In this document: one piece after another, positions 5,807-56,430 of the stretch
Position numbering within the stretch: position 1 is the first letter of the stretch
Layout of the letters: every line of letters starts with the position of its first letter
Origin: Enterobacteria phage RB18
Sequence record: NC_054906.1
Direction: 5' to 3' (one strand)
DNA length: 64,000 nucleotides
Position numbers and translations under genes: made by a program
The notes under the pieces: generated by a model
What the model was told of the DNA's origin: nothing
The model's database searches: none
What the model saw: the letters and a program-made list of their open reading frames with translations, nothing else

Positions 5807-6088
5807 TTAATTAAACATTGGAGCGATACGTTTCAGAAGAGTAGCAGCACCTTTAGCGAATTTTACATCATGAAAAACAGTTTCTTCTTCTGTAACAACT
5901 CGAACTTTAATATTTTCACAATCCCAATTTTTACGAACAATCTTCAAAAGCTGCAGTAAATCTTTACATTCAGCAATATCGATAACACATCCACGAGAAT
6001 CTTCCATTATCGCACGATAACCGTAAGCCATACCATAATCGTTAAAAGATTGCTCGATGATAATTAAGTTTTCCATTTTATTCTCCAA
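5807..6088 (-). CDS. hypothetical protein
   Basis: 93-aa ORF with GGAG RBS. Confidence 0.5.
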   Translation of the reverse strand: MENKMENLIIIEQSFNDYGMAYGYRAIMEDSRGCVIDIAECKDLLQLLKIVRKNWDCENIKVRVVTEEETVFHDVKFAKGAATLLKRIAPMFN

Positions 6089-6105
6089 GTTGTTTTCTGT
6101 AACAG

Positions 6106-6141
6106 TAGTTGATATTGATATAGTACCATAATCAACTACTG
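6106..6141. repeat. 11-bp perfect inverted repeat (cagtagttgat / atcaactactg)
   Basis: read directly; 14-nt loop; lies in the leader of the 5807..6088 ORF. Confidence 0.5.
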
Positions 6142-6173
6142 ATGTATATAGTTTTATGAAAAAAATTTAAACT

Positions 6174-6665
6174 TTATGCATAGCGAGCTTTGCTGTAGTG
6201 TTTAATCCAACTTTCAGGAATGACTTTGTATGTTCCTAAAAATACCGTGTTGTACAGCTTAACACCGTCTTCTACCCACTGATCGGTAATGTATGCGCAC
6301 ATAGCACGAGTACGGTTAACAACCCCTTCCTCACCTTCAGTAAATTCAAACTCATAAGGAGCAACGAACTTGATAGCTTGACCGAGTTTCCACTTAAAAT
6401 CTACACCTACATGCGAAGTATCAATCGTTTCAATTCCTTTAGCGGGAACAGCTTTCAAAAACGCAGGCTCAAGAAATTTCCATCGAACATAACCAAACTG
6501 AGGTTTAGACATTCCATCTTTAGGAATGATACGCACTTTTACTTCAGAATCTTCATCTTTAACACCATGTTTAAGCTGAATGCTTACAACTTCAACCAAT
6601 TTTCCTGCTGCCTTAGAACGGGATTTATCAGATACACGAGCAATTTCACCGATATTAATATTCAT
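6174..6665 (-). CDS. motB: MotB-like modifier of transcription
   Basis: 163 aa (T4 MotB is 162); position between the cef/39 side and dexA. Confidence 0.65.
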   Translation of the reverse strand: MNINIGEIARVSDKSRSKAAGKLVEVVSIQLKHGVKDEDSEVKVRIIPKDGMSKPQFGYVRWKFLEPAFLKAVPAKGIETIDTSHVGVDFKWKLGQAIKFVAPYEFEFTEGEEGVVNRTRAMCAYITDQWVEDGVKLYNTVFLGTYKVIPESWIKHYSKARYA

Positions 6666-6709
6666 AATTATCTCTCACTTGTTAAAAAGATTTTATACTC
6701 CGCAGGACC

Positions 6710-6739
6710 ATTATACTCTGGTCCCAAGAGTTTGTAAAC
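6710..6739 (-). promoter_or_regulatory. early promoter (GTTTAC-18-TATAAT)
   Basis: consensus elements on minus strand upstream of motB; the -10 lies inside an inverted repeat ggacca...tggtcc. Confidence 0.5.
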
Positions 6740-7239
6740 TAGCTTACACGAACATTAATCACTGCGCTGCGAGGAACTACGGAGTACTCTCCAGCATGAA
6801 CTACATTAAGAAGTTCAACGCCATCTTCAATCCACTGGTCAGTTACCCAACCGCCAATCGGATTCGCGAATGGACGACGAATATAAACTGCCTTACACAA
6901 CAAATCAGTCGGGTCTTCAATTTTTTCAACTGGTGTTACATACATAGAAACTAAATCCATATCAATATGGGATTTTTCTTGTTCTTCTTTTTCAATTTCT
7001 GTCAATAAATTGAAATCTTCTTCATAGATGATGAATGATGATACCCTTCCATAATAGTTTCTAATTTCCATGTACACTGTACCAATGAGAATTCCGCTAT
7101 TAACACTAATAACAGTAAAAGGATATCCGCCAGTTGTACCAAGAAGTTCCCAAAACTTGCTATCAGTCGTATTCGACATTGTCTGGAAATCAATTTCAGA
7201 TGGTTTTTTCATTTGATACGTAGTATTAATTTTAATCAT
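6739..7239 (-). CDS. MotB paralog
   Basis: 166 aa; C-terminal VTDQWIEDGVELLNVV..YSVVP aligns with MotB ITDQWVEDGVKLYNTV..YKVIP. Confidence 0.55.
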   Translation of the reverse strand: MIKINTTYQMKKPSEIDFQTMSNTTDSKFWELLGTTGGYPFTVISVNSGILIGTVYMEIRNYYGRVSSFIIYEEDFNLLTEIEKEEQEKSHIDMDLVSMYVTPVEKIEDPTDLLCKAVYIRRPFANPIGGWVTDQWIEDGVELLNVVHAGEYSVVPRSAVINVRVS

Positions 7240-50298: not shown

Positions 50299-50613
50299 CT
50301 AAAAGAAACTTCTTTCACAATTTTTTCCACTGAACCAAGCGCTCACTGCTTTCTTAGTCTCAGGAGCAGTGTTATCCATAAACCATTCAAAAGCAGCCTT
50401 TTTATGATTCTGGAGGGCTTCTCGGGCTTTAATCTGCTCACGGTCTATTAACACTAACATATGAGCCTTTCTTGTCACCAGGGGCTTCTTATGATTTTTT
50501 GAATATTCCCAATCATTTGTCCATCGCATCGTTGTTGCGAATTGAAGTACAGCTTCTTTAATCTTAGTTTCGTAAATTTCACGAGCCTTTGAGTATAACA
50601 TCATTACCTCCAT
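50299..50613 (-). CDS. hypothetical protein
   Basis: 104-aa ORF. Confidence 0.5.
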   Translation of the reverse strand: MEVMMLYSKAREIYETKIKEAVLQFATTMRWTNDWEYSKNHKKPLVTRKAHMLVLIDREQIKAREALQNHKKAAFEWFMDNTAPETKKAVSAWFSGKNCERSFF

Positions 50614-50702
50614 TTACTAGTTTAATTCTAGTCATCTTTTTGATGGCAGTCCATATAATCTATTTCTGAACTGCCTTTTTGTCTTAGAAGTCCTCTTATG
50701 AA

Positions 50703-51671
50703 TTATTTCAGAAGAGTAACCTCAGCGATTTCTTCCCAACCGTTTTTGTCGGTCATAATAAAGTCAGCAAGATAAAGCGCAGTACGCAGTGAAACATTGC
50801 GTAAACGATTAACATTGACTTTCATCCATGATAATGCTTTATAAGTTTCTTCATCAGAAAGACCGCGCTTTTGCATCATGTCAGTTGAAAGAATAACATC
50901 TTCAACCCTGACCATAATTTCTTCATTAGTGTGAACACCCAAATCCAAATAAACTGAGCGGGACACTAATGCTTGTAAATGTGGAGCAAGTTTAGTACCA
51001 CGGTCTAATTCGCGGTCAATGTCAACGTTTGTGATAAAAACAATCGTTCCTTTAAATTCAAACTCACGCTCAATGCCTTTTTCTTCTAAGTAAGAAGATG
51101 CAGTGCTCCAGCAGACTTTACGGGTCTCTCCAGTGTCCAGAGCAGCTTTCAAAAGATTAAGAATATCCATATCAGAGAAAACATCCACATCATCAATCAA
51201 AAGGACAGAATTCTCTTCACGATTATTCCAGAGCTGTTCATAAAGACCGATACCAGAGATTTTACCGTTAATGCTTTTATATTCAATGTATCCAATATCA
51301 TTTGCTTTATTTAAAGCTTTATCCAAAGAATACGTTTTACCAATACCTGCCGCACCAGAGATAATTAATGAACGAATGTTTCCGTTAATAATACCATTCG
51401 TCATCATTCCCATAACATTAAATCTTTTATTAATGCGGGTTTTCATATCTTCATATGATTCTTTAACTTCTTCAACTTTTACACCATCATATGAAATGTC
51501 TGATTTGTAAACCCAAACACCGCGACGTTTACCGTCAATTTCAACAAAAACTTTACCATCTCCTTGCGCATCTACTGGAGCATTATCAGGGAACCACTCA
51601 CCTAAGAGTTCAAAAGTTCCAGAGATTTCTTTGCCAAAGTAGATACCCTTATTGATAGTTACAGTTTTCAT
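50703..51671 (-). CDS. P-loop NTPase (AAA-like ATPase)
   Basis: 322 aa from the internal ATG (GGAG RBS); Walker A GAAGIGKT, Walker B VLLIDDVD. Confidence 0.6.
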   Translation of the reverse strand: MKTVTINKGIYFGKEISGTFELLGEWFPDNAPVDAQGDGKVFVEIDGKRRGVWVYKSDISYDGVKVEEVKESYEDMKTRINKRFNVMGMMTNGIINGNIRSLIISGAAGIGKTYSLDKALNKANDIGYIEYKSINGKISGIGLYEQLWNNREENSVLLIDDVDVFSDMDILNLLKAALDTGETRKVCWSTASSYLEEKGIEREFEFKGTIVFITNVDIDRELDRGTKLAPHLQALVSRSVYLDLGVHTNEEIMVRVEDVILSTDMMQKRGLSDEETYKALSWMKVNVNRLRNVSLRTALYLADFIMTDKNGWEEIAEVTLLK

Positions 51672-51705
51672 TTTATTCTCCAAATCCGCATCAGTTGATA
51701 GTTGT

Positions 51706-51735
51706 ATAGTACCATAAAGCTTTATGCTTGTAAAC
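51706..51735 (-). promoter_or_regulatory. early promoter, repeated cassette copy C
   Basis: GTTTAC-18-TACTAT; about 45 nt of leader identical to copy A. Confidence 0.55.
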
Positions 51736-51765
51736 AACTTTGTGAAAAATTTTTGAAATAAAAAA

Positions 51766-51783
51766 GGGAGCCCGAAGGCTCCC
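51766..51783 (-). terminator. intrinsic terminator, UUCG hairpin plus U-tract
   Basis: gggagcc-cgaa-ggctccc; minus strand follows with TTTTTT; right after the nucleotidyltransferase stop. Confidence 0.65.
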
Positions 51784-51785
51784 TA

Positions 51786-52799
51786 TCATTTATAATAACT
51801 TCGGTGGTTTTCAAGATAGACCTTCTCAAGGAAGTCATCCCAGAAACTCATGTCTACTTTTTGCTGCATACCGTTCTTAGAAGCTTCAGTAGATGCTGCT
51901 TCTACTTGATCAACCACATCTTCCAAAAACTCTTGAACCGTTTTAAATGGATGTTTACCCAACTTCACGTCGAGAATAAATGGAGCATCTTGAAGTGGAT
52001 AAACCAAGTCGCCAGTTTTGTAAATTTCCAATAGTTGGAGTCCACCACGACAAGCATGGCTCAGAGCTTTCCAGTCAATACCTTCATTGGCTTCAGCCTT
52101 ACGAGCACGTTCACCATATTCAGCATCTAATTTGTTCAGTGACTGCTTAAGCTCAATAAGAGAAAGCGTTGTCTGATATTTACGACCCAATACAGTGTAG
52201 AACGTTTGTGGACCTGTTTTCTCATGATTATGGAACACCCATTCACAGAATTCGTTTTCTGGAAGACGATGCTTAATATCTTCAACTTTAGTGCGACGCT
52301 GCTTAATAGAACCATCTTCTTGGTAATCAACCCATTGCTCAGGGATTTGATTAACTACTTTCAATACATCGCGTAATGCAGCCAAACGAGAACCCTTGAC
52401 ACCATATTTAGAAGCTTGCTTGCGAACATATCCTAAATAGGATTTCATGTTAGTCGTATAAAAACGAGAACGGTTGTCTTGAATAAACTTCCACACATCA
52501 GGCAAATCAGATTTAACCACTAGTTCAGGTGGAGTGTGAAGCATATCCAATGCTACAGTTTCACCATCTGCTGCTAATTTAAAGAAATATTTAAGACTGT
52601 ATAGTTCATGGTCAATATCATCTTTAGTGTTTTTAGATGATGTGTTGTTAGTGTTTTTACTCATGTGCTCTTTGACATTTCCGATAAGAATATCACGAGC
52701 AGGAGGAACAAAAATTTCTTTAAAATCTACATCAGATTCTGGGGTAGAAGTTCCATAAAGATGACTACCAAAATAGCTTTTCATTACTGTTTTCATCAT
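51786..52799 (-). CDS. predicted Pol-beta-superfamily nucleotidyltransferase
   Basis: 337 aa; N-terminal GSHLYGTSTPESDVDF (hG[GS]..D.D motif) with a third acidic residue near KDDIDHE. Confidence 0.55.
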   Translation of the reverse strand: MMKTVMKSYFGSHLYGTSTPESDVDFKEIFVPPARDILIGNVKEHMSKNTNNTSSKNTKDDIDHELYSLKYFFKLAADGETVALDMLHTPPELVVKSDLPDVWKFIQDNRSRFYTTNMKSYLGYVRKQASKYGVKGSRLAALRDVLKVVNQIPEQWVDYQEDGSIKQRRTKVEDIKHRLPENEFCEWVFHNHEKTGPQTFYTVLGRKYQTTLSLIELKQSLNKLDAEYGERARKAEANEGIDWKALSHACRGGLQLLEIYKTGDLVYPLQDAPFILDVKLGKHPFKTVQEFLEDVVDQVEAASTEASKNGMQQKVDMSFWDDFLEKVYLENHRSYYK

Positions 52800-53257
52800 T
52801 CAGCCTTATATTCAATAACAGGACATACTTTAGCTTTACGAGCTTTTAAAAATTCAACGATAATCGATTTCTTGGGTTGAATAGGAGGTAAACCTTTATA
52901 CGCCCTATCAATATTTTCTATGTGTAAAGCATAATCCTTTTTCCATTTATAATCTTTATATTTTTCATGCAAATGTGCAGGAATAACAAATGAACCGATA
53001 ATAAGTAAAACAACCAAAAGCGCAAGTATAAATGCTGATGGAAGAAGAGTCCATAAACTACCGAAAATAAGCCAACGTTGTAGGCTTTCTGCACAAATAA
53101 TTGTTAGCCCTACGAGTATAGCACATCCAAAAATAGAAACGAAAAATGTAGGAATGGCAATAGACCAAAAATATGCGCATAGTGTCTTAGGTCGTTGCCA
53201 TTCATCGTTAAACAATTTGAATAATTTATAGTGCCAAGAGTTTTCATTAATAATCAT
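52796..53257 (-). CDS. multi-pass membrane protein
   Basis: 153 aa with 3-4 hydrophobic segments; ATGA overlap with the nucleotidyltransferase gene. Confidence 0.5.
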   Translation of the reverse strand: MIINENSWHYKLFKLFNDEWQRPKTLCAYFWSIAIPTFFVSIFGCAILVGLTIICAESLQRWLIFGSLWTLLPSAFILALLVVLLIIGSFVIPAHLHEKYKDYKWKKDYALHIENIDRAYKGLPPIQPKKSIIVEFLKARKAKVCPVIEYKAE

Positions 53258-53259
53258 AA

Positions 53260-53781
53260 TTATCCTTTCATTGAAGGCGTAACAGTTGTTAAATACTTAA
53301 TCATAGCTTCAGCTTCTGATTTTGATAATGAAATTTCTCCATTGTTTTGACGAATAGAAATAAAATCCGGATGACGGTCACCACCAGCTTTTAAAACACA
53401 CATATAAGTATCAACTTCATCTTCAATATTTGAAATGATTGAAGCAGTTCCACATGAATGCGGTTTTTGATAAATCAATGCAGCTTTTCTTCCGCCATTT
53501 GACTGTTCATAAACTTTTAATACATCAAACAAATCACTTCTTTTATCAATAGCTAAAATGTTATTTTCATCTTCAATGTTAAATCCTTCGGATACTTCAT
53601 AAAGTGTCACCCATAAATCGCCAATATCAATAACAGCGTTCACTTTTCCATGACTTTCAAGAGCATGACAAATTTTCTTGATTTCGTCATAACTCATTTT
53701 AATAATATCATCTCCTTGAATAAGAAAGATGTCATTTTTAAATTCAACACGAATTAAACCACTTCCACTTGAAATAAACAT
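53260..53781 (-). CDS. hypothetical protein, paralog of the next gene
   Basis: 173 aa ending SKSEAEAMIKYLTTVTPSMKG. Confidence 0.5.
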   Translation of the reverse strand: MFISSGSGLIRVEFKNDIFLIQGDDIIKMSYDEIKKICHALESHGKVNAVIDIGDLWVTLYEVSEGFNIEDENNILAIDKRSDLFDVLKVYEQSNGGRKAALIYQKPHSCGTASIISNIEDEVDTYMCVLKAGGDRHPDFISIRQNNGEISLSKSEAEAMIKYLTTVTPSMKG

Positions 53782-53787
53782 ATTTCC

Positions 53788-54342
53788 TCACTTTGAAATC
53801 ATAGTTGGAATGACAGAATCAAGATAAGTCTTTAGCGCAATAGCTTCGTCTTTGGTAAATGTGACAATATGTGCTCGAGAATCATCATTTTGGCGAACAA
53901 GTACGACATCGCCATCTTCATAAGAAGTCTTGACATCCAAAGTCGTAGTATAGTTTGCAGCTACTGGATTAATAATGTTAGCACCGCGATCTTTAGCCCA
54001 TTGAAGTTTAGCCTTTTCGGGTGTTTCGGCTGTTTCAGATTCTAAGAATTCTTTCACCTTGGCAACGAATGTTGCCCAATTGTTGATAGAAAGACACATA
54101 AATTCAGTTTCAATATTACCGCCGTAAAGGCCACGATAAAAACGAACTTGGAGGTCACCTGTAATATTAGTTACACCGGTAACTCCTGAGGGAGCATAAG
54201 ATAAAATCGCAGCCAGTTCCATAGGAAGAATAGTAATACTATCGTCTTCCTGCGTCAGAACGTATACATTACCGCGTTTTTCGATAACTAGGTCACCGAA
54301 CAAATCAGTTGTTTCAATTACAGCTTTCATATTATTTACCAA
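53788..54342 (-). CDS. hypothetical protein, paralog of the previous gene
   Basis: 184 aa ending TKDEAIALKTYLDSVIPTMISK. Confidence 0.5.
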   Translation of the reverse strand: MVNNMKAVIETTDLFGDLVIEKRGNVYVLTQEDDSITILPMELAAILSYAPSGVTGVTNITGDLQVRFYRGLYGGNIETEFMCLSINNWATFVAKVKEFLESETAETPEKAKLQWAKDRGANIINPVAANYTTTLDVKTSYEDGDVVLVRQNDDSRAHIVTFTKDEAIALKTYLDSVIPTMISK

Positions 54343-54517
54343 TTAAAGTTTCAATATAAGAATCAAGATTTACTTTAGCTTCTTCCATAAGAGTTTTGTA
54401 TTTAATCTTGTTAGCATGTCCGGAGAAAGCTGATTCATCAATAATTGTTGATGTATGAACAGCTTTACTATACGTCTCAATTAATTCTCTTAATTTAAAA
54501 GCCTGCTCACTTGTCAT
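54332..54517 (-). CDS. hypothetical small protein
   Basis: 61-aa ORF. Confidence 0.4.
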   Translation of the reverse strand: MTSEQAFKLRELIETYSKAVHTSTIIDESAFSGHANKIKYKTLMEEAKVNLDSYIETLIGK

Positions 54518-54650
54518 TACATACTCCTCTGAATCATATCAATAATGTTGTTTACCAAATTATAAGTAAACATTGGGTAATTATATTGAATCATCACATA
54601 CACAACAAACAAAACTTTCATTCTCTTCTCCTTGGCAGTCGACAAGATTA

Positions 54651-54680
54651 CTATACCATAACCTTGCCAACTTGTAAACC
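54651..54680 (-). promoter_or_regulatory. early promoter (GTTTAC-18-TATAGT)
   Basis: minus-strand consensus upstream of the 54517 operon. Confidence 0.5.
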
Positions 54681-54844
54681 ATTAAATGACGTTTTCGATA
54701 AAATTCTGAAGCTTTGTATGAGCATCAACCATGATTTTCAATTCTTCTTTAGCGAAAGCCGTACCTCTTTCCCGAGCAGAATACTCATAGTCAGAAACTG
54801 CATTAGCATATTCTTCAATTAGCTTCATTAAAAACATCTGCTTT

Positions 54845-55039
54845 TCAGTTTTCATTATTCCACCTAATCATTTCAAGATATTGAACTAACTTAGCTTTGG
54901 ATTTATCCAAATCTCTTTTAGCTGCTTCTATACCGTCGTATGAATATCCTTCACAATGCTCAACTGCTAATTGGTATGAATCTATTTCAATATCACGTGC
55001 TAATTTAATGATTTTTTCAAACTGTTCACGTGTTAGCAT
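54845..55039 (-). CDS. hypothetical small protein
   Basis: 64-aa ORF. Confidence 0.45.
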   Translation of the reverse strand: MLTREQFEKIIKLARDIEIDSYQLAVEHCEGYSYDGIEAAKRDLDKSKAKLVQYLEMIRWNNEN

Positions 55040-55041
55040 AC

Positions 55042-55281
55042 TTAAACTCTCGTATTATGATCGATAATTTCATCAAGAAACATATCTAACGCTTCTAAAG
55101 CATTATCAACTTTAGCTTCAAGTTCATCAATGCCTTTATTTGCAATGCCTGACGAAAACCAAGCAAAGTCACTAAGTTCCTCGTCTGCTTTACGAATTAA
55201 AGCTACCAATTCTTTAATCTTATCCGCTTGTTCGATACTAATCATTATTCCACCACATATGAAAGAGAGAATATTGCACAC
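55042..55281 (-). CDS. hypothetical small protein
   Basis: 79-aa ORF. Confidence 0.45.
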
Positions 55282-55433
55282 GCCATGTGAGTTGCAACTT
55301 CATCACACATATTATAACGTTTCTTAAGAAGTTCTACAAGTTCTTCACTAGTAACTTCATCCATGTCGACGAAAAAATCACCATTAATGATGACGTAGAT
55401 ATTTCCTTCTTGATTGAGTGCTTCAATTTTCAT
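55245..55433 (-). CDS. hypothetical small protein
   Basis: 62 aa from the internal ATG (AAGAGGAG RBS). Confidence 0.45.
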
Positions 55434-55461
55434 GATGTTCTCCTCTTTATCCGATAGTTGT

Positions 55462-55491
55462 ATAGTACCACAGCTCAAACGGAAAGTAAAC
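55462..55491 (-). promoter_or_regulatory. early promoter, repeated cassette copy D
   Basis: GTTTAC-18-TACTAT with conserved core. Confidence 0.5.
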
Positions 55492-55506
55492 CGGTAAAAT
55501 GAAAAA

Positions 55507-55524
55507 AGTCTCCCGAAGGAGACT
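55507..55524 (-). terminator. intrinsic terminator, UUCG hairpin plus U-tract
   Basis: agtctcc-cgaa-ggagact; minus strand follows with TTTTTTC. Confidence 0.65.
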
Positions 55525-55528
55525 AATG

Positions 55529-55915
55529 TTATTCGAGGGAAAGAAGATATTTACTCTGGTAAAACATTCCAGTAATATCATCTATCGTGCTTTGGATGGC
55601 TGGAGGCATTTCTTTATAAATGCTGTTAGATTGGTCTAGTATGCGATCAATCATTTTAATTGTGTCGGTAGGAAGTTTACTGGCATCTGGAATTGAAGGT
55701 GTGTATTTTCTACCAGAATACCCCAAATATTGCTCACCAAATTTATCAATCAAATCTGGCAACTCGGAGAAAATAAAATCGTATGCTTTGTGTCTAGCAT
55801 AACTTTTAGTTTCAAAATGTGCAGAATGAAAATAAGCTTGTGCAGCCATTAATAAACCTAAGTATTCATCTGCCTTTGAAGGTTTTCCACTTTGTGAAAA
55901 GTCGCTGAATTTCAT
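55529..55915 (-). CDS. hypothetical protein (rI.-1 position)
   Basis: 128-aa ORF, ATGA overlap with rI. Confidence 0.5.
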
Positions 55916-56205
55916 TCAGTCTCCAATTTAATGTTCATAATTCTAGCGTATGATTGTGCCATCTCCGCGCCTCGTTCTATACATTCAAAATCAGAAGAGC
56001 ACGGGTCATTTTTATAGGTCGTTCTCATAAAACTATAGAATTGTTCAGACGATTCTACGCTTTTATTTTCAAAAAGCATATAAACGTGCCTAATACCAGA
56101 TTCCATAAATTTATCAAAATGAGGATCGACATTCGCTTCAATCGATGGAGATAAAACAAATGACAATCCTAGCATGGCAAAAAGTGCCGTTGCTTTTAAG
56201 GCCAT
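55912..56205 (-). CDS. rI: RI lysis-inhibition regulator (periplasmic antiholin)
   Basis: 97 aa; MALKATALFAMLGLSFVLSPSIEANVDPHFDKFMESGIRHVYMLF matches recalled T4 RI. Confidence 0.8.
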   Translation of the reverse strand: MALKATALFAMLGLSFVLSPSIEANVDPHFDKFMESGIRHVYMLFENKSVESSEQFYSFMRTTYKNDPCSSDFECIERGAEMAQSYARIMNIKLETE

Positions 56206-56217
56206 AAAGGCCTCCTA

Positions 56218-56430
56218 TCATTTTTGTCCTGTATTTACTTTATGCCGATGCACGGCCTTAACTTTATCAAGGTATTTTTCAAAATTTCGCAATCTAGTAT
56301 AGTCTGCCGGAGATTGGTTGAGTGATACTTCTCGACGCAAAGCTGAAATGATATTTCCAACTTCCCTACGAATTTCATCTAATTGAAGAACAGTAAGATT
56401 GCGAAGTTGCTTTTCAGTTAATTGTAGCAT
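56218..56430 (-). CDS. hypothetical small protein (rI.1 position)
   Basis: 70-aa ORF. Confidence 0.45.

Follow-up and report, generated by a model that had tools for sequence, protein, structure and literature searches.

We analysed a 64,000-nucleotide stretch of Enterobacteria phage RB18 DNA (NC_054906.1; hereafter the window), concentrating on a 337-amino-acid (aa) protein encoded at the end of an early transcription unit. An earlier reading of the same sequence (the original prediction) had proposed that this protein may belong to an undescribed nucleotide-signalling or anti-defence module. The protein is the product of T4 nrdC.11, which is already catalogued; earlier publications cover its family and offer a plausible role. 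Its profile matches place NrdC.11 among the RlaP (PF10127) Pol-beta nucleotidyltransferases (NTases), as a divergent member. It probably acts as a phage counter-defence accessory of the T4 transfer RNA (tRNA) repair pathway, in which it would refill trimmed tRNA 3' ends.

Identity and family of NrdC.11

Over all 337 residues, the protein is 98.5% identical to T4 NrdC.11 (NP_049709, T4p095 in NC_000866, annotated 'nrdC.11: nucleotidyltransferase'), and it is 100% identical to that of phage RB27. The gene also occupies the same position, between the mobD region and nrdC.10, with flanks that are collinear with T4 at 96% DNA identity. The two phages share the downstream neighbour nrdC.10, the position of the terminator, the upstream promoter and mobD.2. 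The statement of the original prediction that the core T-even gene set has no counterpart of this arrangement is incorrect. A tblastn search found NrdC.11 in 1,516 phage records; the evidence named beforehand as speaking against a new module, a homologue ubiquitous among T4-like phages, does exist. The range covers Tequatrovirus, Dhakavirus, Moonvirus, Bragavirus, Lazarusvirus, Pseudotevenvirus, Angelvirus and Schizotequatrovirus, and its outermost members are Vibrio phages, Sinorhizobium Emdodecavirus and a 257-kb Klebsiella phage.

The gene was not undescribed either. Nolan et al. reported in 2006 that nrdC.11 orthologues match nucleotidyltransferases (COG3541; PMC1524935), Pfam covers the protein with its RlaP family, and a 2025 preprint on RlaP names the T4 protein as T4NrdC.11, placing it in a separate sequence-network cluster, cluster 5 (PMC12776372).

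The family assignment is drawn from several profile comparisons. The match of NrdC.11 to PF10127 scored 44.6 bits (cut-off 23; E = 1.8e-11), over residues 7-135 only, while phrog_388 ('nucleotidyltransferase') matched with E = 6e-137. Alignment to canonical RlaPs with hhalign gave a probability of 91% and E = 9e-7 over residues 5-138. In a library clustered at 50% identity, the NrdC.11 family comprises 3,444 clusters at E <= 1e-3 and 830 at E <= 1e-30, in the main full-length proteins some 320 aa long. Within the RlaP clade formed by these 830 clusters, T4 NrdC.11 is the member most amenable to study. Direct and profile sequence searches of the PDB with NrdC.11 gave no meaningful match. A canonical RlaP query found nothing there either, so sequence comparison detects no RlaP chain in the PDB copy searched.

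Many GenBank and UniRef records label NrdC.11 as 'thioredoxin', a label presumably copied from the gene name nrdC, and the assignment given here corrects this widespread error. T4 MobD.4 (60 aa) is likewise labelled 'molybdopterin-guanine dinucleotide biosynthesis protein MobD' in RefSeq, which is another name-driven error.

Predicted active site and fold

The conservation alignment comprised 59 diverse homologues, 34-54% identical to NrdC.11. Residues G11, S12, G16, S22, D23, D25, N57, D63, Y132, K244, H248, R251, P268 and K279 were invariant in all 59. This invariance indicates that the Pol-beta signature and the third acidic residue recognised in the original prediction (G11 S12, D23xD25 and D63) are genuine features of a catalytic site. 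In profile-profile alignment, the NrdC.11 motifs fall on the SGSRAWG, SDYDV and LDING motifs of canonical RlaP. AlphaFold2 gave a confident model of NrdC.11 (predicted local distance difference test (pLDDT) 94.2, predicted template modelling score (pTM) 0.82).

In this model, an alpha/beta NTase core at the N-terminus is followed by a beta-rich insert (about residues 155-209) and a helical domain at the C-terminus. D25 is located on strand 24-31, with D23 just ahead of this strand, and D63 lies on strand 62-68. The predicted catalytic triad is intact and invariant, and the original prediction was right in that the last gene of the unit encodes a nucleotidyltransferase of the Pol-beta superfamily.

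Canonical RlaPs share with NrdC.11 the Pol-beta core with hG[GS], DxD and a third Asp, as well as the succession of an N-terminal NTase and a C-terminal helical domain. However, NrdC.11 is about 80 residues longer, and it has the beta-rich insert and a distinct C-terminal half. Where NrdC.11 has an invariant K244-x3-H248-x2-R251, canonical RlaPs have K-x3-Y-x2-R (KxYxYxxR, in 17 of 17), a resemblance at the level of the motif only. Since the two align over residues 5-138 only, with no more than this short motif in common beyond them, we regard NrdC.11 as a divergent subfamily, the separate cluster 5 of the published network.

Cellular homologues and RNA-repair operons

In a scan of cellular genomes with one genome per species, we confirmed 156 relatives and kept 80 loci (full length, 32-54% identity). 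Many of these are on megabase-sized chromosomal contigs from Desulfobacterales, Nitrospirota, Alphaproteobacteria and archaea. All open reading frames (ORFs) within 3.5 kb of the homologue were clustered, and the cluster representatives were scanned against Pfam. Directly downstream and on the same strand, a median of 33 nucleotides away, 25 of the 80 loci encode a canonical RlaP of 254 aa that matches PF10127 over its full length (E = 6e-81). RtcB is found in 8 loci, Pnkp, with its kinase, phosphatase and RNA_lig_T4_1 domains, in 7, and Hen1 and Ro/TROVE in 5 each; 15 of the 80 have RtcB or Pnkp. Of the 80 loci, 34 have at least one of RlaP, RtcB, Pnkp, Hen1 and Ro; among the 52 with at least 2 kb of sequence on both flanks, the number is 23.

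The operon maps show these genes in the orders Hen1-Pnkp-NrdC.11-like-RlaP (loci L067 and L039), Pnkp-NrdC.11-like-RlaP (L079), RtcB-NrdC.11-like-RlaP (L087) and Ro-RtcB-NrdC.11-like-RlaP-Hen1 (L044). Cellular homologues of NrdC.11 are thus encoded, as canonical RlaPs are, in RtcB or Pnkp/Hen1 RNA-repair operons. Such a context is what defines the RlaP family, and it links the NrdC.11 clade in particular with RNA-end repair. The cellular NrdC.11-like gene nevertheless differs from a canonical RlaP in that it usually accompanies one instead of replacing it.

Tandem pairs of an NrdC.11-type and a canonical RlaP gene occur in loci L044, L067, L079, L087, L039, L085, L066 and L086, with the match at about 6001-6950 in most of them. 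The presence of two different RlaP-type enzymes side by side suggests a two-enzyme, possibly heterodimeric, unit. We found no description of this pairing in the literature cited here.

Among phages, canonical RlaPs were found in 86 records, largely of jumbo phages. None of these is T4-like, and T4-like phages therefore carry the NrdC.11 type only. In Sinorhizobium phage phiM19 (L008 1..709), a gene annotated as '2'-5' RNA ligase' lies about 3.3 kb upstream of the NrdC.11 homologue; it may be a trace of RNA-repair linkage outside Straboviridae.

A probable role in tRNA repair

Two Pseudomonas RlaPs, from P. fluorescens and P. aeruginosa, add one or two nucleoside monophosphates to an RNA 3'-OH, as described in a December 2025 preprint (PMC12776372). 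According to the same work, they use all four nucleoside triphosphates, label RNAs of the size of ribosomal RNA (rRNA), tRNA and fragments, and act neither on DNA nor on protein, E. coli proteins included. They prefer Mn2+, work best on the 5' half of a mimic of cleaved tRNA and, acting before ligation, partly restore the aminoacylation of a tRNA that lacks one anticodon-loop nucleotide (PMC12776372). According to a prediction by Iyer et al., RlaP puts back, ahead of ligation, the nucleotides that RloC has taken away (PMC7824862). RloC's removal of the wobble nucleotide was in turn proposed by Davidov and Kaufmann to defeat T4 tRNA repair, and the phage's answer was left open (PMC2610378).

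Taken together, the RlaP assays and the RloC literature make the refilling of trimmed tRNA 3' ends the best-supported role for NrdC.11. T4 encodes the enzymes for the subsequent steps, Pnk (pseT) and Rnl1 (rnlA), elsewhere in its genome, and Rnl1 needs a 5'-phosphate and a 3'-OH. In the proposed sequence of events, a RloC-type host anticodon nuclease would cut and then trim the anticodon loop of a tRNA. NrdC.11 would extend the 3'-OH of the broken RNA by one or two untemplated nucleotides, as the Pseudomonas RlaPs do, after which Pnk and Rnl1 could reseal some of the tRNA in functional form. We infer the substrate of NrdC.11, the number of nucleotides it would add and its link to RloC-type nucleases; the present analysis itself shows the orthology, the family membership, the catalytic residues, the fold and the placing of the cellular homologues in an RNA-repair context. 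The anti-defence function named in the original prediction survives in this broad sense, as a counter-defence that would repair RNA damaged by host nucleases, but not as a new module.

Several observations weigh against such a role. The assayed RlaPs belong to a cluster other than cluster 5, which contains NrdC.11 (PMC12776372), and only about 135 N-terminal residues of NrdC.11 align with them; neither the C-terminal half (for which hhalign was not significant) nor the insert aligns with canonical RlaP. In 46 of the 80 cellular loci, the five labelled repair genes are all missing from the 3.5 kb on either side. Neither an RNA ligase nor a kinase gene was found in the operon or in the region of the window examined, and it is a further difference from canonical RlaP that nrdC.11 adjoins no ligase gene in T4-like phages. 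The numbers of phage records with NrdC.11, Rnl1 and Pnk are closely matched (286, 287 and 286 for Klebsiella phages, 83, 83 and 83 for Shigella, 69, 69 and 70 for Acinetobacter, and 56, 56 and 56 for Enterobacter), which fits cooperation, but shared descent explains these counts equally well. The nearest solved structure, HalB, makes oligo-dA and not RNA tails. Finally, T4 remains viable on laboratory hosts after loss of the nrdC.11-mobD.3 block (PMC9825161).

A more specific form of the tRNA-repair role is conceivable, and we put it forward only tentatively. The NrdC.11 type, with its own C-terminal half and beta-rich insert, might be a functionally distinct RlaP subfamily and an obligate partner of canonical RlaP in bacterial Pnkp/Hen1 or RtcB operons, possibly as a heterodimer, and in T4-like phages it might act alone with Pnk and Rnl1 to reverse RloC-type wobble excision. 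If true, this reversal would answer the question posed in 2008 of whether repair-competent phages can overcome RloC. With its classical Pnk/Rnl1 tRNA repair, T4 provides the setting in which to ask whether phages mend trimmed tRNA lesions. As a discovery, the gene itself carries little weight, being a known and widely conserved T4 gene.

Alternative functions

NrdC.11 could also act on other RNA 3' ends, independently of Pnk and Rnl1, for example in the repair of tRNA CCA ends or in the tailing of messenger or small RNAs. The breadth of the assayed RlaPs, which labelled rRNA-, tRNA- and fragment-sized RNAs with all four nucleotides (PMC12776372), is compatible with this, as is the missing local linkage to a ligase gene in T4-like phages. 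However, Pfam matches NrdC.11 to none of the families of CCA-adding enzymes, poly(A) polymerases or TUTases, Cid1 was matched to the NrdC.11 model with a Foldseek probability of just 0.04-0.08, and it is specifically in repair operons with a ligase that the cellular homologues are found, which leaves this broader tailing activity unlikely. We consider it still less probable that the target is a protein, with NrdC.11 AMPylating and thereby silencing a host HEPN-type RNase, such as an anticodon nuclease, in the way MntA acts on HepT. The match of NrdC.11 to PF01909 (MNT) reached 13.7 bits, below the cut-off of 21, and no HEPN gene was found among the NrdC.11 neighbours in the Pfam and PHROGs scans; the toxin-antitoxin function offered in the original prediction is unsupported for the same reasons. 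Furthermore, the cellular homologues adjoin ligases, kinases and Hen1, not HEPN toxins, and E. coli proteins were no substrate for the assayed RlaPs (PMC12776372).

The remaining possibilities make the membrane protein encoded just upstream a partner of NrdC.11. The two could form a CD-NTase-like, two-component signalling or anti-defence module that makes cyclic or linear oligonucleotides. The intact predicted triad would allow this, the stop codon of the membrane gene overlaps the nrdC.11 start (ATGA), and the two genes adjoin in most non-T4 Tequatroviruses and in MX01. Yet T4 has nrdC.11 at 98.5% identity with no membrane gene, carrying mobD in its place, and the membrane gene was not detected within 4 kb of nrdC.11 in five distant phages (RB43, Aeromonas AsFcp_2, Vibrio XZ1, Sinorhizobium phiM19 and Klebsiella KPN8), nor beside the homologue in any of the 80 cellular loci, where the context is RNA repair. 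The predicted fold is not CD-NTase-like, no cGAS, DncV, CD-NTase or OAS structure being among the structural matches listed for NrdC.11, and PADLOC gave no match. Neither the membrane partner nor the cyclic-nucleotide signalling of the original prediction is consistent with these results, and a module of this kind is most improbable. A Hailong-like pair is worth naming because HalB of Hailong (PDB 9dbh) is the top structural match of the NrdC.11 model and the Hailong system pairs its NTase with a channel in the membrane (PMC13434031). NrdC.11 would then be a HalB-type oligodeoxyadenylate maker that either gates the membrane protein or holds host HalA channels closed. The identity to HalB is only 16%, however, and the NrdC.11 family profile did not match HalB in the PDB sequences even at E <= 10. 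The similarity is at the level expected among KNTase-like NTases in general; kanamycin nucleotidyltransferase/ANT(4'), ANT(3'')(9) and LinB also combine a Pol-beta NTase with a helical substrate-binding domain. HalB is a 217-aa enzyme of oligo-dA synthesis and an obligate partner of HalA, whereas the membrane gene here is dispensable and exchangeable. The membrane protein has no PDB match and its model is too poor for comparison (pLDDT 63), the pairing of NTase and membrane gene is broken in T4 and was not found in the five distant phages or the cellular loci, and characterised RlaPs are inactive on DNA (PMC12776372). We thus give a Hailong-like or anti-Hailong function hardly any credence, and a part in tRNA repair remains the preferred function of NrdC.11.

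Layout of the early unit

The genes make up an early transcription unit of a T4-like phage that runs from mobD.2 to nrdC.11, and the window is Tequatrovirus DNA. When a 3-kb segment was compared with phage records by megablast, 719 were matched, with a best identity of 99.2%, nearly all of them Tequatrovirus and relatives. Between 50.5 and 56.3 kb every gene is on the minus strand. The coordinates of the features are collected in Table 1.

Table 1 Features of the mobD.2 to nrdC.11 unit and its surroundings in the window
Feature	Coordinates	Strand	Basis
NrdC.11, Pol-beta nucleotidyltransferase, RlaP family, 337 aa (336 from the second ATG, as in T4)	51786..52799	-	
153-aa membrane protein, phrog_944, two long hydrophobic helices	52796..53257	-	family match and hydropathy
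173-aa second y05I-family paralog, in cassette	53260..53781	-	PF24449 and PF24448
180-aa MobD.1-like (y05I family) protein, in cassette	53788..54330	-	PF24449 and PF24448
61-aa DUF7438 protein, in cassette	54332..54517	-	PF24219, E = 1.4e-15
34-aa MobD.2 homologue, first gene of the unit	54517..54621	-	97% identical to T4 mobD.2; phrog_3515
Variable cassette	52801..54505	.	similarity to T4 breaks after mobD.2 and returns exactly at the nrdC.11 start codon
T4-type early promoter, GTTTAC-N18-TATAGT, extended -10 TG	54650..54679	-	top sigma-70 match in 50500..56300, 10/12
Second early promoter	55462..55491	-	early-promoter pattern
Intrinsic terminator AGGGAGCC-UUCG-GGCUCCCU + U6	51765..51784 (also given as 51758..51784)	-	8-bp GC-rich stem
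NrdC.10, 329-aa P-loop ATPase	50703..51692	-	weak AAA_14, AAA_22 and nSTAND3 matches
NrdC.10 early promoter, just past the nrdC.11 terminator	51706..51735	-	

The early promoter that the original prediction placed ahead of the unit is present and ranks first among the sigma-70 matches of the region. The window contains 19 matches to the T4 early-promoter pattern GTTTAC-N18-TANNNT, every one of them on the minus strand, where 0.85 would be expected; examples are those at 2418, 6710, 15092, 19626, 47295, 50267, 51706, 54650, 55462 and 59851. The whole window is an early region transcribed one way. As no terminator lies between the second early promoter and position 54679, read-through from this promoter into the mobD.2-nrdC.11 unit is likely. 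The strong UUCG terminator that had been noted at the end of the unit has a folding energy of -17.7 kcal/mol (z = -4.4) and is also annotated as a terminator in genome G4498. Rfam and tRNA scans of the whole window gave no matches.

The unit consists of six closely packed minus-strand ORFs, joined by stop/start overlaps or gaps of at most 6 nucleotides. The tight packing on one strand had been seen correctly, but five genes had been counted, and the 34-aa mobD.2 homologue, a gene annotated in both G4498 and T4, had been overlooked. As the sequence features are present as described, the gene-level observation of the original prediction is confirmed with small corrections, and its interpretation as a novel module is unsupported.

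Genes upstream of nrdC.11

Compared with T4 by blastn, the window is 96% identical up to 54506, the end of mobD.2, and 96.6% identical again from exactly 52800. The 1.7 kb between mobD.2 and nrdC.11 have no similarity to T4 except for a 160-bp island of 88% identity (53763..53922). At the position of this cassette, T4 has mobD.1 and the HNH homing endonuclease gene mobD (PMC2988022) directly upstream of nrdC.11, in place of the DUF7438 gene, the two y05I genes and the membrane gene present here. The T4 nrdC.11 gene is thus intact with no membrane, 173-aa or DUF7438 gene beside it. The island covers sequence from the 3' end of the gene resembling mobD.1; the cassette was compared with the T4 locus L002 3633..4999.

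The 61-aa ORF was confirmed, and T4 has no DUF7438 gene at the same position. The window contains four DUF7438 (PF24219) paralogs of 57-67 aa, MobD.3/4-like genes on the minus strand (54332..54517, 54682..54855, 54845..55039 and 55042..55245). One of them is called 'helicase loader' in RefSeq via PHROG 4859, which looks over-annotated for a protein of 61 aa. The next two proteins are true paralogs, as had been proposed (29% identical, E about 1e-6), but the length of the first is 180 aa when counted from the ATG of related annotations; an upstream TTG gives the 184 aa originally reported. The 180-aa protein is only 47% identical to T4 MobD.1, while the flanking DNA is 96-97% identical, and the 173-aa paralog has no T4 match within the locus.

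The 153-aa protein has hydrophobic stretches at residues 25-60 and 62-98. A low-confidence model of a two-helix hairpin (pLDDT 63, pTM 0.29) points to at least two passes, which agrees with the multi-pass membrane protein of the original prediction as far as these two stretches go. It has no Pfam match and no PDB sequence match. Two cytoplasmic motifs, SWHY...PK(T/S)LCAYFW at the N-terminus and KA(R/K)KxKVCPxIE at the C-terminus, are strongly conserved in its family, and the conserved cysteines and the Cys-Pro suggest a possible site of specific interaction or modification. The named genomes with homologues are all T-even-like phages.

Across the phage loci compared, the membrane gene directly adjoins nrdC.11 only in Tequatrovirus (most non-T4 members) and MX01. 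One gene lies between the two in Merlin, and one gene together with an annotated terminator on the opposite strand in Acinetobacter PhaR5; in Proteus Pm5461 the distance is 1.6 kb. Overall, the membrane protein was found in 897 phage records, as against 1,516 for NrdC.11. None of the upstream genes accompanies NrdC.11 in the distant phages, neither they nor nrdC.10 are beside any of the 80 bacterial and archaeal NrdC.11 homologues, and NCBIfam and PADLOC gave no matches to the six proteins searched (those of the unit other than the 34-aa MobD.2 homologue, plus NrdC.10). By these sequence comparisons, the DUF7438 gene, the two y05I/MobD.1 paralogs and the membrane gene are an exchangeable cassette, which appears to share the promoter by virtue of position and not of function. 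The upstream genes being a swappable cassette and not partners, there is no new signalling module.

Two further candidate partners of NrdC.11 were rejected. A small ORF overlaps the NrdC.11 stop codon in many distant phages, but the ORFs of different phages share no homology. NrdC.10, an AAA ATPase, has its own promoter past the terminator, is near NrdC.11 only in some Straboviridae and does not occur in the cellular loci. The phages T4, MX01, Merlin and Acinetobacter PhaR5 retain nrdC.10 in the vicinity of nrdC.11.

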